This document shows positions 21,030-62,595 of a stretch of 64,000 nt of DNA, piece by piece (the stretch's first letter is position 1; each line of letters opens with the position of its first letter). Made by a program: the position numbers and the translations under genes. The DNA is taken from contig JAHRHZ010000099.1 in the NCBI GenBank assembly GCA_024137785.1, positions 1,131,262-1,195,261 of the forward strand, written 5' to 3'. Under the pieces are notes generated by a model that saw nothing but the letters and a program-made list of their open reading frames with translations, was not told the origin of the DNA and made no database searches. Source of the stretch: Ginglymostoma cirratum (taxonomy: Eukaryota).

Positions 21030-21243
21030 TTCTCATGACCTTACACGAGTCCCGCTGCCCCAGGATACTGGCTCAAACTAACTCTCCAGATGGTCTCCCT
21101 TCAAACACGGTAGATCATTCTTCATTCAGAGAAACGCTTTTTCGCCATTGTGCCTCTCACAGCAGCGATTGGCTCCTGAGTGTGGGAAACGCAGAGAAAC
21201 CCGGGCTCACGCTCACTTCCCTGCCCTCTTGGAGCTATAAATA
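21030..21243 (+). promoter_or_regulatory. HES5-type promoter cassette, copy A
   Basis: TTCTCATG 21030, CAGATG 21087, CATTGT, GATTGG (reverse CCAAT), TGTGGGAA 21181-88 + 15 bp + GGCTCACG 21204-11, TATAAATA 21236-43. Confidence 0.85.
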
Positions 21244-21993
21244 CAGGAGATGTTGATCAGAAACGCAGCAAACAGCAGAGACCGCGTCTTAGTTCACTAC
21301 CAGCTTCAAGAATGCGTCGACTTATTTACAAAACCATACCAATTGCAAGACGAGAAAACATCTCAGCTAAGGTGGGGTTACATTGACCAGAGATCGAGAT
21401 AGGCGCGAATTGTCTGATAGTAAATCCGTCTTTCATTTGCTAAAACGTTTCCTCGCTATTTTTTTCAGCTGTTAAAAGCAGCACTGCAGAGATTGCACTG
21501 GCTAAATTCAGAAGTTTAGATGTCACTGCGTTGAAAAGGAAAGATTACTACCCGAAACGGAATCGGTAACAAGTCTCGGGTAAGGCATCGAATTCCTCAC
21601 ACGCTGTAGACTGCAGATGATGTCAATAATTTTTATTTTGCTTGCCTAATCAACGTTCTGTAACGTACAGTTTTATCTCCGTGTGTCTTAGTTCGTGTTC
21701 CCCCACTGATTGGACACCAGAACAATCGCAGACCCGCTGTCAACTCGAAACACTGAGATGCAAATTAAGAAGAAAATCCCCAGCCGATTGAACCGAGGTT
21801 CAGATCTGTATTTCTCGGCTTGTCAGGCCCGGCCAAGCAAAACTTCTCGGCCCAGCACCGCTGAAACACCTGGACAACATTTTATATGACTCAGGAAGTG
21901 AGAGTTGCACGGTAGAGATACTGAAGGTTTATTCTCCGGTGTTAGACAGTATTCCACAATGGAAGTACCATTGTAAATACCTTCACATTGAAG
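21236..21993 (+). pseudogene. HES5-derived locus A (pseudogene or lncRNA): ATG 21312, exon 1 ends 21371, exon 2 21469-21579, exon 3 from 21692
   Basis: Same promoter and three-exon layout with about 100 bp GT-AG introns as the coding gene. Spliced frame MRRLIYKTIPIARRENISAK-LLKAALQRLHWLNSEV* stops at 21517-19. No WRPW found. 3' region aligns with the HES5 3'UTR. Confidence 0.75.
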
Positions 21994-24249
21994 CAGTTGG
22001 ATGCTTTTTTAGCGTCTAGTCCTCAATCGAGCGACGTCATAGTCCACGACCCGTTTTCGACAATCTTCCCTTAATAATCTCTCTGGTATTGTAATAGCTG
22101 TGGAATTATGCAGCAGAAACCCCCTGTTGAAGTGTGACAGGAAACAGAGAGTAGTTTATTCCGATGAACAGTTTGTGTCTTTTGTAGAAGTCTAGATTCA
22201 TTCACGGAGCACTTTATTCGGATAAGTATGAAGTAGAGAGTTTCTGGACCCCCTGACGTTTCGATTCCTCTCAGCGTCATGAAGGTTCATTGTAAAGATT
22301 GCAGTTCTACGTGAAGTCGCTGTAATCATACCGCTGTGGTATTGAAGGGTTAATAAGAATATTGTATTAAGTGCAGAAAAGCGACTTCAGATTGAAAGAG
22401 GTGGACAGTTTGTGAGGGCTATTTTTCATCCTCCTGTAACATCTCAATAGGTGACCGTTGCTGGCGGAATTGTTGAACTACTAGGGGGCGAGGTCTCGCG
22501 GAATTGATGTGCAGTGCCTGAAGCGAGTCGGAGATGGAAAGTCAACTAACCCTTTTATTAGTCTGGGAAAGTTTTACACAATAACACGTCTGTGTAAATG
22601 ATAAAGCTCCTTATTATAAAATAGATATTGTAAAACCTAAGACCGCAAAGTATTAGAACGGGGGTTATAAAATTACTTTGTGGAGGTGACTGTTGCCCTG
22701 TATCAGGGACGATGTTGTTGAAGCCGAGCGGTTCTTCTTTGTAAAAAAAACTAATAGTAGGTATTTGGAGCTCTTAAAGCTTCCAACCTGTTCAACATTC
22801 TGCGAATGACCCGAAAGGTATAAAATTTTATTGAAAACTTGTTAAAGTACACTCAACATGAACAAGAATAAAGTTAGGCGTACTATTTCGGGATGCGGAT
22901 TGTAGAGCAAGAGAACATAGGTTAAAAACTGATATAAAGACTGATCAGCTCTTGGATGGGCTTGAATTGGAGATGAGGGGGCTCAGTGGGAGAAGAAGTG
23001 ATAGGGGAATGTGAATCACTTAAATAGTTCTGGATGGACGAGCTCAGAGCAGCTGCTTCGGTTTTCTCGTCGGTATCTATTTTGTGATGGTGGTTAACTG
23101 AAAGGACTTAAAAGTTAAGCTAATGATGAATGATCTACATTCAGTGACATTGGGAAATTGTGATTTACAGCTCGACACTGCATTGTTGCTGTATCCTAGA
23201 AAATACATTTCAGACTACAGCATATGTAAATATGCTGGACATTAATACAAACTTCCAATAAAGTTATTTTAAGCTACTGCTGCATGGCGTGGTTTGTATG
23301 CATGATGCGTCGATTTACTGAGTACACTGCATTGTATTCGCGTTCATTCTGTGTACCCTCCCTTGGAAAAATATGTTGTGTATCGCTTTAGAATTCAATG
23401 GTATTTTTAAAATTGATTACAGAAGAATAGCATTTTTTTTCTGGTGTAGTTCGGCTCACACGCCCGTCCCGCGACTAAACGTGCAATTTGAACATTAATA
23501 ATATCGCGAACTGTTGAAAATCGATGGCAGTATATCATATTTAGCTAAAATAATAAACCGTCGATATTCACATGGGTTTAATTCTATTCTTTCATCACAT
23601 CCATATTGTGGCTTCAGCAAAGCATTGGAAGCCAGGCCCCTGCAGTGTCATTCTGAAATGGACGGTGCATGTATTACCCTCCTAAAATATACAGAGAGGG
23701 GCAAGGCAGGCTTCTGGGGACCCTAGCTCCCTCTGTTATTGGCACCATTACGTCCAATGTGTTGCCCTGATTGAATGTGGGAATTGCAGTGTCCTAATAT
23801 AGAAAGTAAATGAAAGCAAGCACCCATGATCGACTCCTTTCAGCTTTCCAGAGGGAGAAGAAGCTGTACAATTAAGCCTCAACCCCAAAGGGCTTGGAAA
23901 TAAAACATTTTGACATTTCCCAATGAAAGAGTTAAGTAGCCCCCATCAAATCTGATCGCATGGCCATCATTTACATTGTCTCCTTTACATTCTGAGAAAA
24001 GGACACTCTATTTCAGGACACCGGGAAGCTCAGAAGAAATTTGAGGTTTTTGATCACAATTCCCCGAAGGTGGCAGGAGAGGATAGTTAAGAAGGCATGA
24101 GGGACATACCTTTATCAGTGGAGAATAGATTATGAGAGCAGGCGGTTATGTTGGAGCTGTACAGAACTTTGGTTACAGCAGGTGTTGTTTGCAGAGGCGG
24201 GTGGGTGGGATGCTGGGGATTTTGTGTATATCTTCTGCTGTTTGCAGAT

Positions 24250-24960
24250 GGTCTCTATCTAGGCCTGTCAGCGAGGCTCAAGGTGGATGACACTCTCACA
24301 GGTGCTTCTTCACCAGTTGGGATGGTCCGAGGCAAGAGATTCCGACGGGTTGGTAGTGATAGTGATTGTTGTCAGCGAGCTTTTGAGGACCTCCCTGAAG
24401 TGTTTCACCTGTCCTACTGGTAACGACTTGCTGTGACCAAGCTCAGAGTAGAGAGCTTGTTTTGGAGGTCTTGTCTCAAGCCAGGGAATGAACTGGCCCA
24501 CCCAATGCTGCTGATTATCATTAGCCAAATCAGAAGTCACATGACGCCAGGTTATCGTCCAATAGGTTTATTTGAAATCACAAGCTTTCGGAGTGCTGCT
24601 CCTTGGCCAGGTGAAGTGACTTCCTTTGACGAAGAAGCAGCGCTGGGAAAGCTTGTGATTTCAAATAAACCCGTTGGGCTATACCTGATGTTGTGTGACT
24701 TCGGACTTTATCCACTCCAGCCCAACACCAGCACCTCCACATCATGCTGTTAACCAATTTCTTGATCGTAGTGTTGGCCTGACAGAGGACACTGATACTG
24801 AAGTGCCTATCCTGCAACTGAGTTTGTAGAATATTGCAGAGGCATCTCCGGTAACATTTCTCTAGCGGCTTCAGATGTCCAATGTATAGGATCCGTGTTT
24901 TTGTCATGTACAAAAGGGCGGGTAACACTACTGCCCCGTAGACCATGACTTTCATACTAG
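24250..24960 (-). mobile_element. RTE-clade LINE fragment interrupted by a palindromic repeat
   Basis: KVMVYGAVVLPALLY...LEKCYRRCLCNIL and WVGQFI...RPPKQALYSEL motifs. Confidence 0.75.
24530..24750. mobile_element. Second palindromic Penelope-type repeat family (also 19985-20160 and 30690-30810)
   Basis: Inverted arms tttatttgaaatcacaagctttc / gaaagcttgtgatttcaaataaa with a TGACGA...GAAAGCTT core. Confidence 0.6.
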
Positions 24961-25789
24961 CCTTGAGATTTCTGAATGAAGTTTAAACTAAAACATCCTA
25001 GTTTTGTTTGCACTAAATTCCAAAGCATAAAGGACAAGTTTAAAATAAAACATTCTAGTGACTCTATTCCCCAGTGCACCAAAGGTTGTACTGTACACTG
25101 GAGGTTAAACAGCAGAGCAATATTACCTTGAGATGATAGGGGGATTAAGGAGAGAAATTACGAGTTAGTGCGAGTCTGATTGGCACAGAGGTGCAGTGTC
25201 ATTAACTATAGATATGTAACTAACTCTGTCAAAAGATAATTCGATTCTTAATCCTTGGATTTTGACTTCCATTTTGTATGATTTATTTTCTTTATTACTT
25301 TATTTTTTAAAAAAATGTCTTAATTTTTGTGGTGGAATACATGGTAAAATATCTGTCACTTTCGGGCATCGTGCATTCTGGAATAATTATTTGAAAAAAA
25401 ATTGCTTTATGTTAAAAAAAATTAAACCTTTACCTTAAATGCAACTCCGTTATACACGGGAGTCTCTCGGTTAATGTGATTGCTCTTTAAACGGTTGCAA
25501 TTTCTTCCCATTGAATGATTATGTTGTAAATGAGACGGTTATGAGAGACCAATTTGTGAAAGAGAAACATGTATAATTCATACAGAAAATGGCCTTGGGC
25601 TGAAAAGCCCTCTGTTCAATGTGCGGGCGCTGGCGCAAAATGTGTAGGATGTGCTCCCCCTAGAGTTATCGCGCAAATAATTGCAGCGTTGGGATACAGA
25701 GAAGGGGTTGCGGGCGCAAGTGCTGAGCAGATTTGCAGAATTTTCTATTGGCGATACGAACAGTGAATTTTTACGATTGTAAATCAAAA

Positions 25790-26345
25790 GCTATGAGTGA
25801 GGCATTAACCATATTTAAGGAAAGATACACTGGCATTGAAGGCGGTACAGAGAAAGTTCACGAGGCTGATCCCACATATGGAGGGATTGTTTCATGAAAG
25901 AGATTGAGTAGATTGGGCCTGCACTTATAGGAGTTTAAAGGAATCAGAGGTATATTATAGAAACATTCAGATTCTTCAGGGACTTGAGAGGATACATGCA
26001 GAGAGGTTCTCCCTTTCAAGAAGAGTCTGGAACCTAAGGGCATGATATCAGAACAAGAGGTCACCCATTTAAAACAGAGATGAGGAAGTATTTAAGATCT
26101 ATTTAAAACAGAGATGAGGAAGTATTTAAGATCTAGGGGATCTCTGGAATCCTTTACCACAGAGGACTACGGTGGCTGGGTCTTTAAGGATACTCAAAAG
26201 TTGAGATGCCCTCAGGTTCCAGACTCTTCACGAAAGGGAGAACCTCTCTGCATGTATCCTGTCAAGTAACTGAATATTTCTATAATATGCCTCTGATTCT
26301 TCTAAACTCCACTGAATACAGGCCCAATCTACTCTACCTCCTTCA
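25790..26345 (+). mobile_element. CR1 fragment with an internal inverted duplication and a 34-bp tandem duplication
   Basis: About 25905-26043 recurs inverted at about 26206-26335; atttaaaacagagatgaggaagtatttaagatct is repeated at 26067 and 26101. Confidence 0.75.
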
Positions 26346-27209
26346 CTGTTAATCAACAATGGAATCAAGGGTCATGGGGAAAAGGCGGGAAAAACAAATT
26401 GAGGATAATCAGAAATTGCTGGAGAAAGTCAGCGGTCAAAGTTCTGAAGAAGGGTCAACGGAGTCAGATCATTAACTTCAGCAATTTCTGTTTGTGTTTC
26501 AGGTTTCCAGCATCTACAGTTCTTTGTTTTATGTTATGGAGGATTATGGTTTCATTGAACGGCGGAGCAGACTCAATGGGCCAACTGATCTACTTTGGCT
26601 CCTACAGCTTGTGGCCTCTTAAGGCCTTTTAATGCCTTTCTATTACATTTCTTCTGTCCCATATTTTAGCAACTCTAACACACGCATACACATGCGTACC
26701 AACAGCTTCTTCCCCGCTGTTATTCGACTTCTGAATGGGTTTCTGAAATTTCAAATCTAATCTGGATCTTGCTTTTTGTGCACCTTCTTTGCAGTCCTAA
26801 CTTTGTACTCATCGCTCTGTTCAATCACCCTATGATCTTTATACGGCATGATCTGCCTGTACTGCCACAAAACAAAACTTTTCACTGTACTTAGGTACAT
26901 GTGACTATAATAAATCAAATCAAAATCAAAACGACGCACTTGAACGTAATCTTTACCTCCCAGAAATTGCTGGCAGCAAATGTAAAAACACATGGCTGTA
27001 TATTCCTTTAACTTAGTCAACAGTTATGTATATCTTCCAATTTGCTCCGAATTGATTCAAGAATAGTAGAACAGCGCAATCAGACAGTGTTCTGGAATAT
27101 GTTCCCAGAGATGGCCCTTCTCCATAATCAATAGCTGCTGATTTTTAAGACAAGGCACGGGAAGACTGTGACCGAAGCTATTCTCGAGTTTAGTAACGGA
27201 TTTGCTTCG

Positions 27210-27430
27210 ATTGTGGCTGAGAATTTCCCACGTGCCATTAACACAAAGTAGGTCAAAGATCAAGCCCTGATCAACAGCACAAAGCAAATAGCCCTGAAGG
27301 AGCTGAACTTTAATGGGCAACGGGTTGCTGAGGGCAAGGCCTTAGAGACTAAATTGAAAAAAAAATTGTGTGCAACTTTCCGTCCGTTTAACGGACAATG
27401 AACATGCCATTGTCTCTTCGTGGGAACTGC
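27210..27430. promoter_or_regulatory. Putative distal enhancer (RBPJ/E-box composite)
   Basis: TTTCCCACGTG 27224-34, a second CGTGGGAA at 27419-26, and ACAAAG/TCAAAG HMG-type motifs; resembles the 45.16k element. Confidence 0.5.
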
Positions 27431-28702
27431 TTCAAACCACGTATATTGCAAACTTCATCTGGTGGCAAATTTATACTAACACTGTTCCTGTTCCATAGAA
27501 TCTTAGAGCGTTGAAGACAATTCGGCCTATAGCTCAAGCGCCAGGTCTTTCGAAGAGCTATCTCGTGGTTTTTCTTCGTAGCCCTGCAATTTTGTTCATA
27601 CTTGCTAATAATTTCGATTGTTAGTAGTGGTATGGATGAGAAGTGTCTGTGAGGCGGTTAGTGATAGACTTCAATAGGATATAGACAGCCTGGGCAAATA
27701 TGTGGTGGGTGTAATTTAATTCAGAGAAATGTGAAACGAACTATTTAAGCAGAAAGAAGATAGAAAAATGGCATCCAAAGGAAGTATGGAATTCTAAAAA
27801 GAGTGCAGGAGCAGAGGGATGTTAAATCCCTGAAGATGTCAGGGTGGGCTGAGAAAGTGATTGACAAAGCGTACAGGATAAATGCGCACAAAACCGAGGA
27901 GGTTCGGGGAATCTTTACAAAACACTGCTTCCTTCTCAAGGGTCTAGGCCCGAAACGTCAGCTTTCCTGCTCCCCTGATGCTGCTAGGCCTGCTGTGTTC
28001 ATCCAGCTCTACATCTTGTTATCTCAGATTCTCCAGCATCTGCAGTTCCTATTATCCCGGATAAGAGGATTGCAGGTCCCTAGGGCAAAGGCATGAGCAG
28101 CAGTGCCTGGGATAGTCTGGCAGGGACCGGCACACAACGGGCCGAATGGCTTCCCTCTGCGCTGTAACATTTCCTGGATTCTGTGAAATATTGATTTTCA
28201 GATTTCAACCAAGTCAACACGAATTCACTTCCACTAAGTTATATATATAATTCCTTCATTGCCATCTCTGAGGGCAGTTTTGTGAAATGTCTGCTCAACA
28301 TTACCAGCTGATTCACATCTACACTGAAGCAGTGGGAGAGCTATTGCCCAGAGATTCTGGAATATAATTCATCAGACAAAGCACCGTCCCTCAAGTTGAA
28401 TACAGACCGAGTAAAGCAGGAGCAAACCGCAGTCAAAAAAGGTTCCGCTCAAGCTGCTCAGTCACTTTCTATTTGCTCAGACAGTATCCGCCACGCAGTG
28501 CATGAAATAGTCGGTGTTTAGGGTTTATAGACCTTTCATCAGAACTGACAAACTTTATAGTCGAGCAGCATTTAGTCGGGAACAAAAGTACAAATTGATG
28601 GAAAAGTGCAGCAGATCTGTGGATAGAATTCAGAGTTAACGTTTCGGTTCCACTAACCCTTCCTCAGAACTGCCAGATGCGCTGAGCTTTTCCAGCACTT
28701 TA

Positions 28703-29014
28703 TCATAGAATCCCTATAGCGTGGAAGCAGGCCATTTGGCTCATCGAGTCCACGCCAACTCTCCAAAGAGCATCCCACCCAGACCCACCTCCTACCCTAT
28801 CCCTGTCCCTGTATTTCCCAGCCTAGACACTGCGGGCAATTTAGCATGGCCAATCCACCGAGCCTGCACACATCTTTGGACTGTGGGAGGAAACCCACGC
28901 AGACACTGGGAGAATATGCAAACTCCACACGAATAATCGCCTACGGGTGGAATCGAACCCGGGTCCCTCGTATTGTGAGATAGTAGTGCTAACCATTGAG
29001 CCACCGTGCCGCCC
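28703..29014 (-). mobile_element. HE1-like tRNA-derived SINE, full length
   Basis: The minus strand begins GGGCGGCACGGTGGCTCAATGGTTAGCAC (A box), has a GGTTCGATTCC B box and a LINE-like tail gggattctatga. Confidence 0.85.
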
Positions 29015-29287
29015 CCTTTCTATTCGCGTTTTCAATTTCTAGCATCTACAGTTCTTTCGGTTTTTATTTGGTAGGGAAGGTGTGTGCGTGTTTCGGGGAC
29101 GGGGAGAATAATTAATTAGCTGCAAGCTGCTATGTTGGGGATCGAGCGATTATTAACAATTGTATGGTAAAGGATTAGAGAGCTTCATGAGAGGAATATG
29201 AGTTAAGAGGACATTCACAAAATGTGAATAGAGTTTGAAAGGTGCGAGGAGAACAAGAAAAAGTGGGTGGAAAAAGAAATTGCCAGA

Positions 29288-29510
29288 AAGGAAAGAAATG
29301 GTGGGGTTAAAATTGTACCAGAGATAATAGGTACTGCAGATGCTGGAGAATCCGAGATCACAAGGTGTGGAGCTGGATGAACACGGCAGCATGACGTTTC
29401 GGGCCTAGACCCTTCTCGGCCCGAAACGTCAAGCTTTCCTGCTCTTATGATGCTGCTTGGCCCGCTGTGTTCATCCAGCCCCACACCTTGTGATCAAGGA
29501 AAGAAATGGT
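29288..29510. mobile_element. Short palindromic Penelope-derived insert
   Basis: Inverted terminal repeats; flanking direct repeat aaggaaagaaatggt. Confidence 0.7.
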
Positions 29511-30189
29511 CCTGTGTTTCACGATGATAATGCCCCTCGACTTGTCTCTGTTGATGAAGGGATAGGAAAGACAGAATTTACCCAGTAATTGTCTAAGGTG
29601 TGACCTGACCTGGGCGATGCCAAGGCTCCGATGTGGCAGGGTCTGTATAGATGCAGGTTCTACCTCACAGTGATGTGACACAACTGGATGAGCAATAAGG
29701 ATTTTTTTTAAAATCTAAAGGACTGCGGATGCCGGAAGACAGAAAAAAACCCAGAAATTGTTGGCAAAACTCAGCAGGTCTGGCAGCATCTGTGGAGAGA
29801 AATCAGAGTTAACGTTTCGGTTTCAGTGGCGCTTCTTCAGAACGGGTCTGCCAGATAGACGCTGCCAGACCTGCTGAGCTTTCTATTTTTGCTTTTTTAA
29901 AATTCGCTCAGAAGCACATAATTGTGTTCCGCAAGGAAATAGACTTCCTTTTCTGAAAAGATCGCTAACTTAAGATAAGCATCTTGATATCAGTACAAAA
30001 TCAATTGGTCTGTGTTTTCTGGTGGATTTATTCGAATAGTGAATTATTTTCTCTCTCAATAGAGAGGAGGCGCTCGGTCTAAATCCCAGAGGTGAGTGAA
30101 TTGGCAAAGTATCTGAAATATGGTTCTAATACATGGCATTTAGGAAGGGGCTGGGGGGGGTGGGGGTGAGGGGGGAGGGAGGAGGCGTA

Positions 30190-30365
30190 AAAACAGGCGG
30201 GAATTCCACACGCCGACCAGCCTTCTTCCTGGAGTGAGTTATTCCTGCAGTTTCCCACGTGCCGCAGACAAAGGAATTCGCTCAGTTGCTGGCTTTCAAT
30301 GAGCCGCGAATGAGCTCATTCATCTGAGCATCACAAGTGCTCTGGGGGGACAATAGCCAGCGTCT
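30190..30365. promoter_or_regulatory. Putative proximal enhancer (RBPJ/E-box composite)
   Basis: TTTCCCACGTG 30251-61, ACAAAG, GGACAATAGCCAGCG; resembles the 47.04k element. Confidence 0.5.
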
Positions 30366-31242
30366 CCCGGATCCACGCCCCTCCCCCAAAAGCTAGCTCT
30401 TCTCAGGCACGAATAAAAAGAGAAACATCTCAGAGAACGTTTCTTCCTATTTGATTTCAAGCAAGTTGCTTGCCGCCTTTAAATTCACCAAAACAAAACA
30501 CATTTTGACACTTTTGTATGTTGCATATTTAAGTTTTGTGTTTGGATCGCACTCCGATAATTCATGTTAAAATTATTCCAACATACACAAACTGTGCCTT
30601 TGCGTTTGCTGTACTAAGCCAGAAGCTAATGTTTGTCAATTACAGCATAATTATTTTGATTTGAATTGATTTATTGCCGGTATAGGCCTGGGGTGAACAA
30701 AGTCAGAAATAGTCATAGTCCAACTGGTTCATTTGAAATCACAAGCTTCCGGGTGCGTAGCCCTTTCACCTGACGATGGGGTTGCGCTACGAAAGCTTGT
30801 GATTTCAAATATCCCTCCAACCCTTTCCTGTTCATGTAGTTACCTAAATGCCTTTTAAACGTTGTAACAGTACCCACATCTCAGAAAGTTCGTTACACGC
30901 GCCAACCACACTCTGTGTGAAAAAAATTACCCCTCATGTCTTTTTTTAAAATGTCTCTCCTGTCTCCTTAAAAATGTGCCCCCTCGTCTTGAGAATGAGA
31001 ACCCCCATCCTAGGTAAAAGACACTACCGGTCAATACCTCTCATTATTTTATAAACTTAAGTACATTAAGGTAACAGAGGAGAATGTGGAATTTTGTGTT
31101 AAGGCTACACGGAAGGTGCAGAGGAAGATCAACTCTAATATATGGGAAGCTTTCAGTGAGATTGCAAGAAGCGATGCTAGATAGGGCGGATTGTTTTGCC
31201 CCTGTGTAGGGTGCCACGTGTGAGACCCACCCCTTCCCCCAG

Positions 31243-31600
31243 TTCTCATGACCTTACACGAGCCCCGCTGGCGCGGGATTACTGGCTCACGCCGTATCTC
31301 CAGATGGTCCCCTTGAGACTCGGCTCCAAAGAAAAAGTCAAAACGCTGTGGCTAATTCTTCATTCAGGAAAGAGAGGTTTTGGGTCATTGTCCGTCCGAC
31401 AGCAGCGATTGGCTGCCCGAGTGTGGGAAACGCCAAGAAATTCAGACTCACACTCGCCATCTGATGGGGCTGCTGTGGGCTCAGAGGCAGAGACTATCCC
31501 AGGCCTGCCTTAGGTCCCACTGCACGCACCGGTCTCTCAAAGATGACTCTTAAGAGTGTTGCTGACTCGCGAAGAGGACTCCCAGAAATGGAAACGGAAA
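31243..31600 (+). pseudogene. HES5 relic B: promoter cassette plus degenerate exon 1 only
   Basis: TTCTCATG 31243, CAGATG 31301, GATTGG, TGTGGGAA 31422-29 + 15 bp + GACTCACA 31445-52; no TATA. ATG 31543 gives MTLKSVAD (compare MAPTSTAD). No exon 2 or 3 seen. Confidence 0.65.
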
Positions 31601-39374: not shown

Positions 39375-40216
39375 TTAACTTTTCCACTGAGATAACAAGG
39401 TGTAGAGCTGGATGAACACAGCAGGTCAAGCAGCATCAGAGGAGCAGGAAGGCTGATGTTTCAGCCCTAGATCCTTCTTCAGAATTTTTTTTTTCTGAAG
39501 AAGGGTCTAGGCCCAAAATTTCAGCCTTCCTGCTCCTCTGATGCTGCTTGGCCTGCTGTGTTCATCCNNNNNNNNNNNNNNNNNNNNNNNNNNNNNNNNN
39601 NNNNNNNNNNNNNNNNNNNNNNNNNNNNNNNNNNNNNNNNNNNNNNNNNNNNNNNNNNNNNNNNNNNNNNNNNNNNNNNNNNNNNNNNNNNNNNNNNNNN
39701 NNNNNNNNNNNNNNNNNNNNNNNNNNNNNNNNNNNNNNNNNNNNNNNNNNNNNNNNNNNNNNNNNNNNNNNNNNNNNNNNNNNNNNNNNNNNNNNNNNNN
39801 NNNNNNNNNNNNNNNNNNNNNNNNNNNNNNNNNNNNNNNNNNNNNNNNNNNNNNNNNNNNNNNNNNNNNNNNNNNNNNNNNNNNNNNNNNNNNNNNNNNN
39901 NNNNNNNNNNNNNNNNNNNNNNNNNNNNNNNNNNNNNNNNNNNNNNNNNNNNNNNNNNNNNNNNNNNCTGAGATAACAAGGTGTAGAGCTGGATGAACAC
40001 AGCAGGTCAAGCAGCATCAGAGGAGCAGGAAGGCTGATGTTTCAGCCCTAGATCCTTCTTCAGAATTTTTTTTTTCTGAAGAAGGGTCTAGGCCCAAAAT
40101 TTCAGCCTTCCTGCTCCTCTGATGCTGCTTGGCCTGCTGTGTTCATCCAGCTCTACACCTTGTTATCTCAGATTGTCCAGCATCTGCAGTCCCTACTGTC
40201 TCTTAACTTTTCCACT
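39375..40216. mobile_element. Palindromic Penelope-derived insert spanning an assembly gap
   Basis: Head-to-head terminal repeats; TSD ttaacttttccact at 39375-88 and 40203-16. Confidence 0.75.
39568..39967. other. Assembly gap (400 N)
   Basis: Run of N. Confidence 1.
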
Positions 40217-48108: not shown

Positions 48109-48345
48109 TTCTCATAACTCGGAACGTGACTAATTGCCCCCGGGTTTGCTCTGTCACACGGACTGTCCAGATGGTCCTCAGAGATTCCCACGCAAAAGCA
48201 ATGTCAAAGCCCATCATTAGTTTGGCATTTACAAGGCAACGATGCGGCTATTGTCCTTCTGAAAGCGTTCGTTGGCCAGAGAGTGTGGGAAACCTCATGA
48301 AACACCGACTCACGCTTTTTTCATGTAAATGCAGAGGTATAAATA
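48109..48345 (+). promoter_or_regulatory. Notch-responsive promoter of the coding HES5-like gene
   Basis: TTCTCATA 48109; CAGATG E-box 48168; RBPJ site TTCCCACG 48185; paired site TGTGGGAA (48284-91) + 15 bp + GACTCACG (48307-14); TATAAATA 48338-45. Confidence 0.85.
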
Positions 48346-48414
48346 GAGGAGGATTCCCGCCTGCCGGATCTCATCAAGCGCAAGTCCCGCTTTAGTCTCT
48401 TTCAATTGTCAGGC

Positions 48415-48492
48415 ATGGCTCCGACCAGTACTGCCGACGTTATCAACCGGGAATTCTCGGAAGAAAAATTCACAGCCAAGCAGAAAAGCAAA
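48415..48492 (+). CDS. HES5: HES5-like gene exon 1, MAPTSTADVINREFSEEKFTAKQKSK
   Basis: ATG in aggcATGG context about 70 bp after TATAAATA; phase-0 donor gtgag at 48493; MAP- start typical of HES5. Confidence 0.9.
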
Positions 48493-48593
48493 GTGAGCAT
48501 AAAAGAATGCGGTGAATATAAACGTTGGCAACGAGGACTTTCAATGCTTACAGTCAGATATAAAATATCTTACTTAATCCGCTCTGTTTTCAG

Positions 48594-48771
48594 ATAATGA
48601 AGATCACAATAGAGAAAAGGCGCCGTGATCGGATAAACAGCAGCATCAACCAGCTGAAGGCTTTACTGGGAAGGGAATTTCAAACGGAGGAACCCAATAT
48701 GAAGCTGGAGAAAGCGGACATCCTGAAAATGACTGTGAATTACCTGAAGCACCACAGCCAACAGCTCAGAG
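48594..48771 (+). CDS. HES5: HES5-like gene exon 2, bHLH: IMKITIEKRRRDRINSSINQLKALLGREFQTEEPNMKLEKADILKMTVNYLKHHSQQLR
   Basis: ttttcag acceptor and gtaagg donor; EKxRRDRINSSI and KLEKADIL are HES5-type bHLH motifs. Confidence 0.95.
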
Positions 48772-48866
48772 GTAAGGCTCATGATCCCGAGCGTGGTTTG
48801 TTTTCCGCCCGTTCGGTTGGAACTAGTGTACGTGACACTGAGCCTGTGTTTTCCTCTATTTTGTAG

Positions 48867-49132
48867 CAAGCGGTCCGGCCAACACTCCGGAGCGTGACTA
48901 CAACGAAGGATACTCTCGATGTTTGCAAGAGGCTCTGCGCTTTTTCTCTGCCCAAGAAGACAAGACCGACATTCAGAAGAAGTTGGTGACCCGTTTCCAA
49001 AGAAGACAGCCACCGTGTCCGGCCAAGGCGACCGTGACTTATCCTGTATGTCTTCTGTCCTCTGCTCCCTGTCAGACCAGCGGCGAGCGGCCAGCTCAGT
49101 GTAGTCAGGCATCCCTGTGGAGACCCTGGTAA
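48867..49132 (+). CDS. HES5: HES5-like gene exon 3, Orange domain (DYNEGYSRCLQEALRFFS) and C-terminal WRPW
   Basis: ttgtag acceptor, phase 1 continuous with exon 2; ends LWRPW-TAA. Spliced CDS is 522 nt (173 aa). Confidence 0.95.
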
Positions 49133-49375
49133 AGCACCAAGAGTGTTGGATACTCTGCCCCGTTTGCAGTGGTGGTGAAGACGATGTAGGAGAATCATTC
49201 TCCAGTGTCAGCAGTAACTGTGGTAGAACCGGAACTGTAGTAAAGGTTGCTTCATATTGAAGAAAGCGTATTTCCCCAGGTTATGGGGCGCGTCATGTTA
49301 TAAAGGATGTCCTGATTTTGCGCTACCGATACGTTAGTCAGACTTCTCGTTTCGATAACTGTCATCAATGTAATT

Positions 49376-49381
49376 AATAAA
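49376..49381 (+). terminator. Probable polyadenylation signal of the HES5-like gene
   Basis: AATAAA about 245 nt after the stop, followed by a GT/T-rich tract near 49408-49425. Confidence 0.6.
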
Positions 49382-53085: not shown

Positions 53086-53914
53086 ACAGTTAATCTCTTC
53101 CGAGATGACAAGCATGGGGCTGGATGAACACAGCAGGTCAAGCAGCATCATAGGAGCAGGAAAACTTGACGTTTCGGGCCTAAACCCTTCATCAGAAATG
53201 GGGGAGGGGAAGAGGGTTCTGAAATAAATAGGGAGAGAGGGGGGGGCGGATAGAGGATGGATAGAGGAGAGGATAGGTGGAGAGGAGGCAGACAAGTTGA
53301 AGAGGCGGGGATGGAGCCAGTAAAGGTGAGCGTAGGTAGGGGGGTGGGGAGGAGATAGGTCAGTCCAGGGAGGACGGACAGGTCAAGGGGGCGGGATGAT
53401 GTTACTAGATAGGAGATGGGGGTGTGGCTTGAGGTGAGAGGAAAAACAGGTTAGGGAGGTGGAGATGAGCTAGGCTGGTTTTGGGATGCTGTTGGGGGAG
53501 GGGAGATTTTGAAGCTTGTGAAATCCACATTGATGCCATTGGGCTGCAGTGTTCCCAGGCTGAATATGATTTGCTGTTCCTGCAGCCTTCGGGTGGCATC
53601 ACTGTGGCATTGCAGCACCCCCCTGCCTACACTCACCTTTACTGGCTCCATCCCCGCCTCTTCGACTTGTCTGCCTCCTCTCCACCTATCCTCTCCTCTA
53701 TCCATCCTCTATCCACCTCCCCCTCTCTCCCTATTTATTTCAGAACCCTCTTCCCCTCCCCCATTTCTGATGAAGGGTCTAGGCCCGAAACGTCAAATTT
53801 TCCTGCTCCTCTGATGCTGCTTGACCTGCTGTGTTCATCCAGCCCCATGCTTGTTATCTCGGATTCTCCAGCATCTGCAGTACCTTTTATCCCTGACACA
53901 GTTAACCTCTTCCG
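53086..53914. mobile_element. Penelope-like retroelement insertion with inverted arms, GIY-YIG tail and hammerhead cores
   Basis: Inverted arms at about 53100-53346 and 53616-53862. The minus frame RRLQEQQIIFSLGTLQPNGINVDF resembles a PLE endonuclease C-terminus. TSD-like acagttaa(t/c)ctcttccg on both sides. Confidence 0.8.
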
Positions 53915-54522
53915 GTAATCTACAGCTTTTTTTTCTCACTACCAATCTCATTGCCAAATATGATATAATCTGCAATCATTTTAACCTCTTAATCTCCTTC
54001 ATTACCCTTCCCCCACACGTTTACATTTGAATCTTTAGTATTTACCATGAAATGGATTAGCCCTGAACCTGAACCCTGCGGAACCCCGCTGAGAATAATT
54101 GCCAGTGACAAAACACCAATCGACATTAGCCTTTTGTATCCTGTCACTGAGCCAATTTTAGATCCATCTTGTCTCTTGACTTGAATCCCTTGGGGTTTTG
54201 CTAGTCTGTTGTGTCTATTATTGCCAACTACCTTGCTAAAATCCTTGTTGCCTCCTCAACAAATTCAAACGAACTAAAACACGGCATTCCACTGGCAAAT
54301 TCATGAGGAGTGCTCTTGATTAATCCTATTCTTTCTAAATGTTGAATAATGCTGTCTCTCAATTTTTTCCCAATTCGTTTCTTGAGAAACATTTAACGCT
54401 ATTCTGTGCAATCTGGAGTAATTTGATTAGGTTAGTTGTACCACATTGATATTCGATGTGCATGAAGTGAATACAATGTGACAAAAAAAGGTAATTGGCG
54501 AAGGCGTTAACATTCCAGTACG

Positions 54523-54647
54523 TAGATAGATAGATAGTCAGACAGACGGACAGACAGCTGGATACATAAATAGATGGACGGATGGGTCGATAGATAGTTA
54601 GGTAGATAGACAGTCAGATAAGTAGCTGAACAGACAGATAGACGGAC
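54523..54647. repeat. Degenerate (GATA/GACA)n microsatellite
   Basis: tagatagatagatagtcagacagacggacagacag... Confidence 0.85.
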
Positions 54648-56729
54648 ATAATGATTCTACTCGGCTTCTTTTTCAAGCATGATGTCAGTCATAATTCAGA
54701 TCTCCGTTGGCCGCCTGGATTCTTTTGAAGCGTGTATGGTATTAATCTAAATATTTTGAACACTGGTTTCCGGTAGATATGATGCCAATTTATTTCCAAG
54801 TGAAGAACAAGGATGGAAGCTCTGTATGCGCCAGTAAACGCACGCAGAGAGCTGTGTGTTGGACAGGAGAATCTCTGTCGCTTGAAGAAAGTGTAACGGA
54901 AGCAACTTCTGTGCATGCGGCAAATTGAGAGTGGATTACCCTGTTGTTCAGGGAGAGGGATGGAGATGACAGTAATTGTGCAGGGTTGTGTTAGAGCGCT
55001 CCTTGGTTAATTTAATCAACAAAAAGGTTACTTTTCCATCAAGTCGTGCGGCAGTTGGAGACTGCACCTGAAAGGGCAACAGGCCTCTAAACAACTCCAG
55101 CAAGTTTAACTTAAAATCTTCAGGGGCGAGGAATTTCAGTTTTCATATCCCTGAGCCAGGTTTGTTGTCCCGCTGTAGGGTTAGCCCTCTGTAAGACTGA
55201 AGGGCGCAGAAGCAAATCTAGACTAGTTTGGAGTCCAAAACATTCAAACCCTAAAAGATGTTGAAACGATTATAACAGAGGTACTAAAATTACAAACCTC
55301 CTGGTCCAGATTTATAAAAGATTTATGGAATCGTGAAAGAAACAAAGACTGCATTTATGTAGTGCCTTTCACGTTAACTATTAAACACTGGTGAGATTTT
55401 GCAAGATTCAGAGCAAACCAGTGTACATCAAAATGTACTTAGGGTTTACCAATATAATCCAGGCAACTCCAAGCCTACAGAAAAGTACTGTCGCCTGCAG
55501 CGCTGCGAGTCCCAGTTCTTTTTCTACAGTGTGAGTCCCAGGTTGGCTGAGTAACTGAATAAGAAACAGTTGGCATGCTGTTAAAGGAGGAACAGAGGGC
55601 CTGGGAACTCCGCTTTGTTTCTTTGAGAACGCTAACAAAGTAAATAGTTTATTTGAACTTTCAGACGGACGTTTGGCGAAAGACCACAACAGTAACATTT
55701 GTTTCCAGATAATATCTTTAAGGCGGAATATAGAAAGGCGTTTAACGGAGAAGCAAATGTAGTGAAATAATGGAGGATGAGTTAGGAGCGAGGTCTGCAA
55801 GTATACTTGACAGGTGAAAGAAAGAACATTTTCATCTCCCCCAAACAAAATTGGCCGCTGTATTTGAGAATTGGCGAGTGGGTGTAAGTAGCCACATGAG
55901 TTGCATTTTAAATAGTATTTTGCCCTTGAGGGCACGAACGCGTTACTGGTGAACTGGGATATAGGTTACTGACTAGAAATGATGGATTGCTGAAATCGTT
56001 GCTGTCTGTCTGTCCAAGATATGTGATGGCAACCAACAAGCAACCGTGCTGTGTCTCACGGTTAGTATGCAGTATACATTTCGGAGACATGCTCGTAGTA
56101 TCCGCTATGTATCGCAGTGCGTCACTGAGTATAGAAAGGCGTCAGGCTCCACTTTCACTGAGACTATTGCATGTCAGGTTTGTGAAAGCCTGATCCCTTT
56201 CATAATCCAAAATTAGCTCAGTCACTGAAATGCATGTCATTGCATATTAATATTAATCAACACCTGAAATAATTTTAAAATGCCACCTTATATCTTGCGT
56301 TATGGGAGCCAACAGAAGCATTGCCCCAACAGGTACAAATACCCGACTGGAGGCAAACTCCACACCTCTGCGGAAGTTGAAGACACGCTTCCTGGAAGGG
56401 CATGCTTAGAACGGTTACCGGAAATAGGTGAGAATTGAATGGGAGAGAACACAGGAGGAAGTCTGCGTTTGAACTCATCACAACATGAACCACGAATTAA
56501 CAACAAAATAGAGCAAGGAACTGCGGATGCTGGAAATCGGAAACAAAACAAACAGAAATTGTTGGCGAAACTTAGCAGATCTGGCAGCAAATGTGCGGAG
56601 AAAGCAGAATTAAAGTTTTCCAGTCCGGTGACTCTCCATCGGGACTGATAATGAATTTCTGTTTTTTGACGTGAACCAGCAAAGTGAGGTATACATTCCA
56701 GCAAAATTATCAGTTCTAAGAGGCTAAGA

Positions 56730-57260
56730 TCTAGTCCCATTTGTCAGCATTTGGCCCATATCCCTGTAAATCCGTCCTGTTCATGAACCCACCCAGATGC
56801 CTTTTAAATGTTGCAACTGTACCCACCTCCTGTGGCAGCACATTCCATACACACATTCACCTCTGCACGAAAAAGTTACCCCTCAGGTCCCTGGTAAATC
56901 TTTTTCTTTTTAGCTTAAACCTATGAGCTCTAGTTTTGGAATCCCCTACTGTGAGAAAAAGACCTTGGCTATTCACCCCATCCACACCTCTCATGATTTT
57001 ATAAACCTCAATAAGGTCACCCCTCAACCTCCGACGCTCCAGGGAAAATAGCCCCAGCCTATTCAGCCTCTCCCTATAGCTCAAACCCTCCAATCCCGGC
57101 ACTATCATTGGAATCTTTCTTGAAACCCTTTCAAGTTTCACAACATCTCTCCTATAGCAGGGCGGCCAGATGTGAAGGCAGTATTCGAAAAGTGGCCTCA
57201 CCAATGTCCTGTGCGCTGCAACGTGATGTCTCAACTCCTATGCTCAATTGCTCTCTCCCA
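56730..57260 (-). mobile_element. CR1-like LINE 3' part (other fragments at about 3830-4140, 30810-31060, 32690-33035, 34430-35000, 46000-46760, 51860-52860, 63190-63870)
   Basis: ORF contains LSYRERLNRLGLFSLERRRLRGDLIEVYKIM, a canonical CR1 motif. Confidence 0.9.
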
Positions 57261-59460
57261 ATTTCAGGCTCCCGCAATGTTCTTTCCTTAAATTTGTGAT
57301 CTCTAGTTGGTGGATATTCCTCTTGGTGGCTGTGTATTCGCAACATGATAAGCTTCATGAGAATTGTTTTCTCCGATTCCTTTAAACATAAGAGGTGAAA
57401 ACACTGCTCAATCGCCTTAACATTCGCCACTCAAAATAGCCATCAAGTTTACAGAGACTGTCCATCATTCTTTATACAATGTTTATTCTTCCTATTCCCA
57501 CCTCCCTTCCCCCCCCCCCCCCCCCCCCCACCGCCAAACGCTTTCCTTTAACTCTATGAAAGTAACCTTCTTGATGTAGAGCCATAGAGATCTGCAGCAC
57601 AGAACAAAGGCCCTTCAACCCATCGAGTCTGTTCCGGTCAAATACAATAATTATTCCATTCCTTGTGTGTTTATCTAATATTTTGACACAACTACCCCTT
57701 GTAATGTCAATCTCACATTCCAACCGTGTTCTGGGTAAATCGTTATTGCTTGAAATCTTTTTATTTAGATTCACAGGTGACCAACTTATGCTTATAGCCC
57801 TGGGTTTTGGTCTCTCTCGCATTTCAAATAGATTTGCTATTTTTAACCTGTCGATCATTTTTACTTTTTCCCCGATCGTTATCAACTGGCTGATCCTCTT
57901 TTCTGCAGGAAAAGAACAAACTGAGAGGTGTCTCGATGGTATTAACCCAATGGTGATCGGGAAAATCAGCCTGCAGGGTGCACCTCAACTGTGGTCTGTT
58001 AATTTGAGAGCTCGGGGACTCCCCCATTCATAGGAACCCAGTGCCTGTACGTGGGACCTAGCATCGAGAGAGATTCGGGAGCAAATCCTGCTTGGAACCA
58101 TCTCAATTCCTTTCTGCCGATCCCATCCCGCAGTTAAGCACATTTACAGCCAGCAGCCACAGTCTGCCGGTGGCGCTGATGTTTGATAGAATTTGCCCGC
58201 AGTTGATTGGCCGGCAGCTCTGAGCTTGCAGAATATCAGCCCCTGGTGGATGCTCTATCCTGGGAAAGACCCGCTGCTACACAGTGAACTGATTGAGAGG
58301 CACCTAATGTGGCAGATCCATCCGAGGACAGGGAAAGGCGGACACAAAAATAAGTGGCAGTTCGCTCTCACTGCAAACTGGCACGCCTAAAGGCATCAAG
58401 CAATGTAGAGATGCGAGTACAGATGGAAGTCAGACGGGAGCTGGGTTCACAGACCAATTTGACAGCATTGAGGCTAACAAAATGGCGCGAGTTACATTTG
58501 AAACATACTCCACCACATTTTCTCCTTTCCCTGCCCTTTTACCAACGTCCCCCATTTACCCTTGACACGTCCAAAATGATCATTTTTCTCCCGTTTATTA
58601 TCCTTGAATGGTCTCCTTTACCTTTGACCCTATAAACACCACCCTTTGTATGCCATCTCTACCCTCTAATCCCATACCCATTATCATCTCCATGCCAGCC
58701 CTGGCACGTACCAATATCTGCATCACCTGTGAATGTATTCCTAAGACCTGGAATGAGACCAGCAGTAACCGACTATTACCCTGGGCTTGACACCCTTCTG
58801 TTTCCCAATTCCCACCCTCTCATTGTCACTGTTCCTGTTTCTGCCCAGTGCCTTAGTTCACGCCCTAGCCAACACTGACGCTTCCCTCTAGGGCCATCTC
58901 TGTCCTACCAACTCTAACTGGAAAGTCCCTCTCTCACCCATTCAAAGGATGCCCAACACCCAAGATTTAGAATTAGACGTTATTGTCACGTGTACTCAAG
59001 TACAGGGATACAGGAGTCCAATGAAAAGTGTACAATGCAGCCACTCCCGGCCCCATCTTAGATACAAATGTGCAAAATCTTAGGTGCAAAGTAGAAAGAT
59101 AAAGAAACAAAGTTAAAAGTTAAACATCACTGCCCTTCTTAGTATTAAGTAGAAAAATAAAGTTAAAATTTACATATTACAGTCCTGAGTATAAACTAGA
59201 AAAATAAAGTAATAAAGAAATGAAAGATAAGAGGCCCTTTCCTCCTTGTCTCCCTCTCTGAACGCACTCCCTCCCTTGGTTAACCTCCCTACCCGAATCT
59301 TCCTGCTTTTCCATTCGGGACTCCTTCCTTCCCTCTGCCAGCCTCATTACTGCGGAATTTCTGCTCCCGATTCCCGGGACAGCCTCCTTGCCTTGAACTC
59401 CTTACACTGCCTCTACCGGTTCTCCATCATGGATCTTAAAAAAGGGGGGGGGGGGAAAGT

Positions 59461-60065
59461 CCCCTCTTCACTCTAAGATAACAAGGTGTGGAGCTGGATG
59501 AACGCAGCAGGCCAAGCAGCATCNNNNNNNNNNNNNNNNNNNNNNNNNNNNNNNNNNNNNNNNNNNNNNNNNNNNNNNNNNNNNNNNNNNNNNNNNNNNN
59601 NNNNNNNNNNNNNNNNNNNNNNNNNNNNNNNNNNNNNNNNNNNNNNNNNNNNNNNNNNNNNNNNNNNNNNNNNNNNNNNNNNNNNNNNNNNNNNNNNNNN
59701 NNNNNNNNNNNNNNNNNNNNNNNNNNNNNNNNNNNNNNNNNNNNNNNNNNNNNNNNNNNNNNNNNNNNNNNNNNNNNNNNNNNNNNNNNNNNNNNNNNNN
59801 NNNNNNNNNNNNNNNNNNNNNNNNNNNNNNNNNNNNNNNNNNNNNNNNNNNNNNNNNNNNNNNNNNNNNNNNNNNNNNNNNNNNNNNNNNNNNNNNNNNN
59901 NNNNNNNNNNNNNNNNNNNNNNNTAGGCCCGAAACGTCAAACTTTCCTGCTCCTGTGATGCTGCTTGGCCTGCTGCGTTCATCCAGCTCCACACCTTGTT
60001 ATCTCGGATTCTCCAGCATCTGCAGTACCTACTATCTCTGATACAATTACCCCTCTTCACTCTAA
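59461..60065. mobile_element. Palindromic Penelope-derived insert spanning an assembly gap
   Basis: Inverted arms on either side of the Ns; TSD cccctcttcactctaa at 59461-76 and 60050-65. Confidence 0.75.
59524..59923. other. Assembly gap (400 N)
   Basis: Run of N. Confidence 1.
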
Positions 60066-61502
60066 CCTCAGGAAATTGGCTACTTCATCCTCTGCCCACC
60101 GTTTATAAGCAGCTGGGAGTCTGAAGTTACCGAGAGCATGTACAAAATATTATTGGGAAGAGGAACTTAATTCTGGGGAAATAGCATTTTAATGAGCGTG
60201 GTGTGCAAATGAACGCAAAATGACCTCCCCACACTTGCCTGAACTGAATAGGGGGTCGTTTGATCCCGCGGTTAGGAAGCTGATTTTTTGATCTCCGGCT
60301 TTATTGAAATTCCCTCCCGCGTTGGAGCCCCCTGCCTTGAGAGTAGCACAAGACCCGCTTTAGGTTTAAACCATTGAGATTACTGCGCGCTGGGTATCAC
60401 ACACTGGTCGGAAAGTTAGGGCCAGGGCATCCTGGGAGAACACGTCCTCACCACTCCACCTTAACTCCAGGAGGAAATCTCCCTCACAGATGAACGACAC
60501 TCGTTCAAGGAAGGTGGACAATGCGGCGTTTTTGCGGTTCTGTTCGACACATTAGAACTTTTAACGTACTCGTGCAAAATGCGTGTGAGACGAAGAGAAA
60601 TCATTACTGTCGCATGGGGAACCTAGAACCACTACCTTAAACGTCAATACCTTCTTCATTGTTCATTTCCTTCTGGAGTGGTCCATGTTTTTCATGCAGT
60701 GTGCACTCCAGAAGCACTTTATTTACAGAATCGTTATTTATTAAGCTTTTCACGAAAGTACAAATAATCCTGATCAAGAAGACAGATCAACTTTCCATCC
60801 ATGCCACAACGTAAGAGGGAGGAACCTGGAGAAAGCTCTCCTACCAAACTCATGGGTATTAGTCCAGAAACTGGACATTTCACTGCGATTATGTTGATAT
60901 AGCATTGAGAAGCTCAACAAGTATTGTTAAAACATGGGGCTTGTATATGACAAAGCACAGATAAGTGACTGCTTAATGCTTTTATTAAACTACCCAACTC
61001 TCCAACATGAAAAAATCCAACTATAATTATTAGAGGGTTTCTGTTAACCCTTTTATAACCACCGCCATGTAATCATGGGTGTTACTTAGAACTAAACTTG
61101 AAGATCGGCTCTCATAAATGGTAAGAGAAAGCGAAACTCCTCCGACCAATTTATAAAGGTGATCATGAGGACATTTTTGTTTAAAGTATCTGGAGTACCA
61201 GGTCTGTTTGTTCTCACATTGCAAAATACATTACCCAGTTTACTGAGTATCCCTTTGCTAACAAAATACAAACTTGTACGTTCTGAGACAGATTCCTTTC
61301 AATCTCTGACGCACTTTTAACAAGAATCGAAATGGAGAAATTTCTCCTACGCACTTTTTGTCGTTATTTCAACTACTGTAGACATTCACTGTGAATATAC
61401 AGAGACATTATTAAGTATTGTACAAATGTTGTAATACACGGCTCCCATATGATATCATACAGGTAAAGATCAGAAATATTCTTTAAATAAACTGACAATC
61501 TC

Positions 61503-62389
61503 CTTCAATGTGAAGGTTTTAATCAGACTGCTTCCACTTTGGAATACTGTTTTTCGCCAGAGTACATCTCTGGTTTTGCCTGTCTAATTTATCGTTAAGG
61601 TCTTTCCCTCAGTCTGTAAAATGTCCATTCCTCATTTTGTACCTCTGTCAGGTTGTCCCGACATGCGGTGCTGAATACTAGGCCTAAACGAATGGAAAAT
61701 ACGTAGGCCCTGTCTGGTCTTCCATATCGGTGAAGTCATTTCATAAATTCTGATTGGAAATCATCTCCCGCTGACATTAAGAGTCGAACCCGCTGGATTC
61801 TCGATTCTGAATCACACGGCTAAGAGCTAAAACAAAAACAACGAAAACATGAGTGATACACTCTGATTGGGAGGATGAAATGATTGTAAAGGTACTCTTT
61901 ACAAATCTTGTATGTAAGGCACTCAATGCCTTACCATGAATCCAGCTGTTGATTTTAATCGTGTCAGGCCGTTCTCTCTCATTCCCAGCCTGCTACTGCG
62001 CAAAGGCTCGAATCGGTATTTGTTTCTGAATTTGTTTCAAGCGCAATGCTGCAAACCAGAGGTACAACAAGCTCCTGTCATCCTCTGCCTCTTCTCTCTG
62101 TCGCCGAGAACTATAGAAAAAGAGCGAACATCTTTGTGATTCAGCAAAAGTCCGAGATTTCTAAATGACGCAATGTAAATACCATAATAATTAAAAACGT
62201 AGAATACTATATTAATCGAACATATTCTAAATATAATCATACCTTGTGTTGTTAGTTTAGAGACTCCATTTCCAAATTCTCTCTCCAAACGACGGTGATA
62301 TTCTTACAGGCACTCAGTGATCTCTGTGCAGTGGAACCTAAAAGCTCCCGTCTGCTGCTGCTCTGACTTTAACATCTCCTGCATTTATA
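61503..62389 (-). pseudogene. HES5-derived locus C (pseudogene or lncRNA): exon 1 ends 62243, exon 2 62110-61935, exon 3 from 61826
   Basis: Donors gtatg and gtaagg, acceptors tttctatag and tgttttag. Exon 2 is 176 bp (178 in the coding gene) with frameshifted bHLH traces (gag aag agg cag agg). The first ATG gives only MESLN*. Shares the 3' hairpins. Confidence 0.75.
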
Positions 62390-62595
62390 GCTCCGAGAGG
62401 ACAGGGAGAAGCGTGAGTCCGGGTTTCTTTGCGTTTCCCACACTCAGCAGCCAATCGCTGCTGTCAGAGGCACAATGGCTAAAGTGCTCTTTCTGAATGA
62501 GGAATTATCCACGCTGACGTTCCTTTGTGCTGAATGCAAGGGACCATCTGGAGAGCTGGTATTAGTCAATAATCCCGGGCCGCAGATTATGAGAA
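62383..62595 (-). promoter_or_regulatory. HES5-type promoter cassette, copy C
   Basis: On the minus strand: TTCTCATA (62588-95), CAGATG (62545-50), GATTGG, TGTGGGAA (62435-42) + 15 bp + GACTCACG (62412-19), TATAAAT (62383-89). Confidence 0.85.

Follow-up and report, generated by a model that had tools for sequence, protein, structure and literature searches.

Two loci in a 64-kb stretch of genomic DNA from Ginglymostoma cirratum (positions 1,131,262 to 1,195,261 of contig JAHRHZ010000099.1; hereinafter, the window), denoted A and C, are, as judged by sequence comparison, ancient non-coding descendants of the Notch target gene HES5 that have lost the protein and retained the promoter, the splice signals and two stem-loops of the 3' untranslated region (3'UTR). 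The region studied consists of the window and 100 kb of flanking sequence on the same contig (out of a genome of 4.36 Gb) and contains two intact HES5 genes (D in the window, E outside it) clustered with four or five non-coding copies, in the order A+, B+, D+, C-, F+, G-, E- (signs denote strands). By the same comparison, the non-coding loci are a real feature of this cluster, and any function assigned to them is a candidate one. The first-pass annotation of this DNA recognized two HES5 paralogues that had lost their protein, which is an undercount given that B in the window and F, and probably G, outside it are further copies of this kind.

Neither A nor C contains the bHLH, Orange and WRPW reading frame of a HES5 protein-coding gene. 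A search for coding remnants at A, B, C and F, by tblastn or with DNA profiles of the intact exons, detects none, in agreement with the first-pass annotation, so that the HES5 ancestry of A and C rests on the homologous promoter, the three-exon layout, in which A, C and D have the same intron-2 donor, and the 3'UTR element; with these three features, the assignment of both loci to the HES5 paralogues holds. The exons of A and C barely align to each other, as had been claimed (z of 2.4, 1.8 and 2.7 for exons 1, 2 and 3, respectively, vs 17.5 for exon 2 of the intact pair D-E). In D-E, the order of conservation is reversed, with a z of 10.4 for the promoter core. Comparison of exon 2 of A and C with D and E yields z of 0.5-1.5, the best local match being that between C and E (p 0.03 among 10 pairs).

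The promoters of A and C are 94% identical to each other. Alignment of their cores (21144-21254 in A vs 62479-62371 in C) gives 101 matches, 7 mismatches and a net 2-nt gap, with z 27 and a score attained by 0 of 200 shuffles, in line with the by-eye count of about 9 substitutions and one 2-nt gap, and the similarity of both promoters to those of D and E is also high (z 11-13). The E-box, the inverted CCAAT, the TGTGGGAA site, a non-canonical partner 16 nt further on and the TATA box follow in this order in both copies; these motif names, including RBPJ, are assigned from consensus sequences. The TATA box reported previously is TATAAAT in each copy. The RBPJ octamer is retained in all six copies from A to F, and the partner site 16 nt on in five of these (A, B, C, D and E). 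These five display, with a non-canonical partner, the arrangement described for RBPJ paired sites, namely a head-to-head partner 15-17 nt apart (PMC7685452). The CpG values in scanning windows over A and C are 0.78-0.87 (ranks 6, 7, 10 and 15), vs a median of 0.34 for 220 such windows. Downstream of A, at 22301-23700 and 25101-25800, CpG-rich windows (0.82-0.92) continue without a recognized gene. The promoter core has 0 exact-pattern matches among the metagenome contigs scanned.

All four introns predicted for A (97 and 112 nt) and C (132 and 108 nt) indeed have GT-AG ends. The RNA evidence pertains to C: among five sequencing runs found, none of which is on record as RNA, four were compared with positions 60100-64000. 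A 1,422-nt contig from run X1, with 0 differences from the window, covers 60583-61826 and 61935-62112 and omits the 108 nt between them. The joint 61826/61935 (ends CT..AC; depth 39, which is no measure of expression) corresponds exactly to the predicted second intron of C on the minus strand. The last exon reaches at least position 60583, i.e., at least 900 nt past the hairpins, so that the 3' end of C, previously drawn at about 61.5k, has to be moved downstream. The intron-2 joint is absent from X2 and X3, both of which cross this stretch in unspliced genomic contigs. Given that X1 is spliced, X2 and X3 are unspliced and there is no second genomic copy of the last exon of C, X1 is read as RNA from the same species. 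A processed retrocopy was considered as the origin of the spliced contig and rejected because each of two pieces of the last exon has a single genomic match (these counts being lower bounds). The X1 contigs provide no cover of the C promoter upstream of 62327, and the joint between exons 1 and 2 is not seen in X1, where the spliced contig ends at 62112, 2 nt beyond the first acceptor; up to that point, exon 1 and the intron have the same letters (AG), and such an end is what would be expected of a graph branch between spliced and unspliced forms. Run X4, a guessed RNA sample from organism B (the related species of X2 and X3), has no cover on C. Among the X2 and X3 contigs matching 60100-64000, none resembles the A promoter and one resembles that of B, a gap that proves nothing; the longest exact match between A and C is short. 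Rfam, at the gathering score, has no match in 12.7 kb around A, B and C, with one chance-level match (22.9 bits vs 65).

An unspliced X1 contig of depth 3.7, covering 62167-62327 (plus strand), shows 17 differences from the window, of which apparently 14 are A>G on the plus strand, where the span contains 56 A; this is one low-depth contig that may be an error. Its pattern would fit a possible A-to-I hyper-editing of an RNA antisense to C (cf. PMC9852825 and PMC4365171), and no intramolecular partner for it is found within 164 kb. C and D are convergent, and antisense overlap is hinted at by this single contig.

The 3' elements contain two stem-loops. Stem-loop 1 has a 5-bp stem that is invariant in A, C, E and F and carries three different loops; with its flanks, it is identical in A and E over 18 of 18 nt, and the 3' element of A and C matches E at 4e-7. 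The pattern of stem-loop 1 has 40 matches genome-wide, four of them inside the HES5 cluster. A, C and D have the same stem in stem-loop 2, the loop of which is CAU or UAU. Thus, the 3' hairpins noticed at first pass are shared by A and C and yet are not peculiar to them, being HES5 3'UTR elements present also in D or E. The presence of stem-loop 1 in E, stem-loop 2 in D and both in A and C implies that the ancestral HES5 3'UTR had both. The combination of invariant stems with altered loops points to selection rather than gene conversion. Pairing probabilities within 350 nt of context are 0.6-1.0 for six of the seven hairpins, with C stem-loop 2 near 1; the folding energy of the whole 3' element is unexceptional (z of -0.4 to -2.0 for A, C, E and F, and +1.1 for D). 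The heptamer CAGTATT precedes stem-loop 1 in A (21947-21953) and C (61549-61543), with one-letter differences in E and in F; it is a possible match to the miR-200b/c/429 seed, of interest as a lead only.

The stem-loops raise the possibility that A and C act in trans as decoys, that is, Notch-induced RNAs that share these elements with D and E would titrate a decay factor and stabilize the HES5 mRNA in a feed-forward loop. A sponge with one or two sites on each RNA has poor stoichiometry, and the short open reading frames (ORFs), which end before exon junctions, would be expected to trigger nonsense-mediated decay. The retention of both stem-loops in A and C, compared to only one in D and only the other in E, is compatible with a decoy, as are the depth of the C contig, with the caveat already given, and the form of C stem-loop 2, a 6-bp stem with a YAU loop that pairs with near certainty and conforms to the relaxed Roquin rule of a 6-8 bp stem and a YRN loop (PMC6294493). 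That is the only hairpin to conform, stem-loop 2 having 5 bp in A and D and stem-loop 1 having 5 bp throughout, and the stem-loop 1 loops of C and F break the YRN rule. Taken together, a decoy function appears distinctly unlikely.

Even neutral decay, which the first-pass annotation took as the expectation for pseudogenes, is rejected for this pair. The A-C body, from the start to the 3' element, scores z 5.4, and in a neutral simulation with assumed indel and transition rates this score requires about 0.9-1.0 changes per site, which is near saturation and exceeds the distance to organism B about 20-fold. The core simulated at 0.8-1.0 changes per site keeps 61-63 matches (at most 78 in 300 runs), vs the 101 observed. 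The conservation between A and C takes the form of separate islands that coincide with functional parts, namely the promoter, the intron-2 donor and the 3' element, and the promoter differences between A and B and between B and C avoid the columns in which D equals E (p 0.021 and 0.040, respectively). The RBPJ octamer retained in all six copies and the CpG richness over A and C also favour selection. Selection is, in our estimate, quite a probable reading of this uneven conservation.

Comparison across species, which here covers C in one relative, yields a different picture for the RNA. In organism B, the C locus is present and colinear; the 3,901 nt compared differ by 183 substitutions and 24 gap letters (4.7%). 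Of 190 substitution entries, 40 are listed, and none of these 40 lies in the promoter. The listed indels in the C exons include +8, -3 and +2, which implies that no frame is being kept. The share of words in common with organism B over C is 0.26, within the 0.20 +/- 0.06 given by uniform divergence (P 0.21). The distal part of the last exon has accumulated 18 changes in 280 nt; on these grounds, the bulk of the C RNA shows no measurable constraint. The C RNA body is not measurably more conserved than the flank, which speaks against a sequence-rich lncRNA (long non-coding RNA) acting in trans. C is transcribed, spliced, longer than 200 nt and without coding capacity, as seen in one run, so the earlier proposal of spliced lncRNAs is partly supported, by such an RNA from C. 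The same comparison bears on the idea that A and C encode short new peptides. There is a 36-codon ORF from the first ATG of A, and ORFs of up to 47 codons are present in C (in a 1,838-nt model, where the shuffled median is 56). No ORF is common to A and C, however, the lengths do not exceed the shuffled median, and the indels in the C exons of organism B shift the frame, so that coding of this kind is extremely unlikely.

The reading favoured here, for which belief and doubt are evenly balanced, is that A and C are dead copies kept as regulatory elements, i.e., units of promoter, splice sites and stem-loops that are maintained by selection and most likely act in cis. After the loss of coding, selection would keep the Notch-responsive promoter with its paired site and TATA box, the splice sites and the two 3'UTR stem-loops; Notch would fire the A and C promoters together with those of the intact D and E; and these promoters, or their transcription, would modulate the cluster as units that resemble enhancers, compete or insulate, with the transcription of C running head-on towards D. 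Splicing, which for A is predicted from the kept splice signals, would support transcription, and the short ORFs together with the decay-type stem-loops would clear the RNA. Action in cis is favoured because conservation is highest in the promoter, B persists without a TATA box or a gene, the RNA body is unconstrained, and short ORFs are combined with decay-type hairpins. That A and C both retain the TATA box, splice sites and hairpins suggests a contribution of transcription and RNA processing beside that of the DNA itself.

A simpler version would limit the function to the DNA, the promoters and 3' palindromes being enhancer-type protein-binding sites, with transcription and splicing as by-products. 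This would be compatible with B, which has the E-box, the RBPJ site and the partner site in the absence of a TATA box, and with F, which keeps stem-loop 1 despite a promoter and a first acceptor that look decayed; since F keeps one of the palindromes, a DNA-level role for these is conceivable. The persistence of the TATA box and all four splice sites in A and C, and the location of the palindromes in the 3'UTR of intact genes, where they change only in the loop, make a function of the DNA alone highly doubtful.

Several observations weigh against regulatory units kept by selection. Expression of C rests on one run from one study, with RNA status unrecorded and possibly derived from the window's own sample; stem-loop 1 of A pairs poorly in context (probability <0.1); and the word sharing with organism B over C shows no excess over uniform divergence. 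Within the core, the differences between A and C fall on 4 of 65 columns in which D and E agree vs 5 of 39 in which they differ, which is no significant enrichment (p 0.21; p 0.18 for the whole promoter). A equals C at 34 of those 39 columns, and a conversion tract would give the same result; the core also forms one uninterrupted stretch of about 120 nt, in two copies of inverted orientation. These features of the promoter lead to the alternative that A and C are functionless old pseudogenes in which an ancient conversion tract homogenized the promoter cores, leaving a working promoter and harmless spliced transcription. The sharp right edge of the block (29, 28, 23 and 26 matches of 30, then 15 and 11), the mosaic affinities of A, which is nearest to B upstream and to C in the core, and an RNA body that diverges about as the flank does are all in accord with this scenario. 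Conversion would, however, have to be invoked again, in separate tracts, for the donor site and for each of the stem-loops, one of these tracts coming from E about 80 kb away; it would not preserve stems while loops change, and it leaves unexplained the intact splice sites, the CpG richness and the RBPJ octamer shared by all six copies. We therefore consider it unlikely.

The non-coding copies probably go back to one coding loss followed by duplication to give A, B, C and F, which would be the simplest reading of the sequence relationships. In the unrooted promoter tree, D and E are split from A, B, C and F at 99/98, and trees in which C is forced together with E or A with D are rejected (p-AU 0.004 and 0.005, respectively, for groups chosen with the tree already in view). 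In their bodies, A, C and F resemble one another (local z 5.3-9.3) more than they do D or E (z no higher than 2.3). Exon 2 is short in both A and F, which also share the 3' end of that exon; for a 280-nt piece of B, the score is 6.4 against E and 4.6 against C. A search of the region with a profile of the A and C promoters detects B, D, E, F (at about 80 kb in window numbering) and, weakly, G (at about 88 kb). A genome-wide DNA search with the C promoter as the query matches only C, A and B. An extended reading, which we regard as rather unlikely, would be that of a non-coding, Notch-driven HES5 family, amplified after the single coding loss and interleaved with the coding genes, that keeps the HES5 decay stem-loops and sets the amplitude or timing of HES5 by convergent sense-antisense transcription or by titration of a decay factor. 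The features of the cluster are listed in Table 1.

Table 1. Intact genes, non-coding copies and their parts in the HES5 cluster (window numbering unless a flank segment is named).
Feature	Position	Strand	Remarks
A promoter	21030..21261	+	E-box 21087-21092; inverted CCAAT 21168-21172; RBPJ site 21181-21188; cryptic partner 21205-21212; TATA 21236-21242
A exon 1	21262..21371	+	start predicted from the TATA box; GT donor at 21372
A exon 2	21469..21579	+	111 nt vs 178-180 nt in intact genes; predicted from splice signals
A exon 3, start only	21692..22000	+	predicted; first AATAAA at 22867
A 3' element	21948..21993	+	stem-loop 1 (21952-21964); stem-loop 2 (21981-21993, CAU loop)
Locus B	31243..31457	+	same promoter: E-box, RBPJ site 31422-31429, partner site; TATA segment lost, gene body decayed
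D promoter	48139..48351	+	RBPJ site 48284-48291
Intact HES5 gene D	48415..49132	+	exons 48415-48492, 48594-48771, 48867-49132; 173 amino acids, bHLH to WRPW
D 3'UTR stem-loop 2	49250..49262	+	stem as in A and C; UAU loop
C promoter	62363..62597	-	E-box near 62550; RBPJ site 62442-62435; cryptic partner site 62418-62411; TATA 62389-62383
C exon 1	62243..62362	-	predicted
C exon 2	61935..62110	-	176 nt; covered by the spliced X1 contig
C intron 2	61827..61934	-	108 nt, GT-AG; spliced out in X1
C exon 3	60583..61826	-	at least 1,244 nt; weaker piece covers 60321-60559; AATAAA at 60305
C 3' element	61502..61548	-	stem-loop 1 (61544-61532); stem-loop 2 (61516-61502, 6 bp, CAU loop)
Copy F	L006:6150-7200	+	RBPJ octamer, intron-2 donor and stem-loop 1 kept; partner site and E-box lost; TATA weakened
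Copy G, probable seventh	L007:3950-4150	-	E-box, TGTGGGAA and TATA-like stretch in the correct order; profile E-value only 0.056
Intact HES5 gene E	L008:8933-9858, ~39 kb beyond window end	-	169 amino acids, three exons, WRPW end; stem-loop 1 in 3'UTR

Some additional features of the window surround these loci. Octamers of the RBPJ type are present between the genes (27225, 27419, 30252, 45158, 47042 and 48185) and may be enhancers. The sequence directly upstream of A has a local duplicate of 317 nt (18444-18756 vs 20730-21045, 85% identical), the end of which falls within the first promoter block of A. At 59469-60058 and 39387-40171, repeats flank 400-N stretches on both sides (181 nt are identical at 39387 and 39968), and the assembly may have duplicated one end of the gap.

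At this locus, the requirements of a Notch target gene as a protein can be told apart from its requirements as a transcription unit. Because copies with and without the TATA box, splice sites and stem-loops adjoin intact genes, action through DNA, transcription or RNA is directly testable. The copies are also an evolutionary footprint that exposes two candidate decay stem-loops of the HES5 3'UTR, for which no report was found in the literature. The literature likewise yielded no account of non-coding HES5 copies, in a search of articles; genome annotations might already list these loci as unnamed non-coding RNAs. If true, a Notch-driven non-coding HES5 family would give the Notch output of vertebrates a non-coding arm.

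A transcribed unprocessed pseudogene is a duplicate that keeps its introns, has a broken coding sequence and is still transcribed. C resembles this class in having introns, no coding capacity and a transcript, and differs from it in that the decay is strongly uneven, with exons that are unrecognizable next to a promoter that is 94% identical between copies. lncRNAs derived from lost protein genes, such as JPX and XIST, are a known kind. In the account of such fossils by Hezroni et al. 2017 (PMC5577775), most of the retained similarity is attributed to DNA elements, and many of these lncRNAs use an adopted promoter. A and C are similar to them in the erased coding, the little similarity of exons, the spliced RNA (seen for C, predicted for A) and the inherited regulatory parts; unlike many of them, A and C keep the original promoter, the three-exon layout and the 3'UTR stem-loops, and here intact paralogues reside in the same cluster and the fossil has apparently been duplicated several times.

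The cluster itself, with tandem three-exon genes in mixed orientation, resembles the vertebrate hes5 clusters surveyed in PMC8320183, including that of the elephant shark, where three hes5-like genes of 169 amino acids, the length of E, are located near nol9; a search for the NOL9-type family here matched another contig only. That survey counts protein genes (its main text has 0 occurrences of "non-coding" or "noncoding"), and such protein-based counts would miss loci like A and C entirely. The 3' hairpins are similar to the Roquin constitutive decay element (PMC6294493) in being triloop hairpins in the 3'UTR with a YAU loop, and differ from it in that the stem reaches 6 bp only in C stem-loop 2, stem-loop 1 having 5 bp and, in C and F, rule-breaking loops. 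The promoters of A to E are comparable to the cryptic paired site of mammalian Hes5, in which a strong TGTGGGAA site is accompanied by a non-canonical head-to-head site 16 nt away and which, when isolated, gave no dimer-dependent response (PMC7685452); unlike the mammalian site, the one predicted in C precedes a non-coding RNA.

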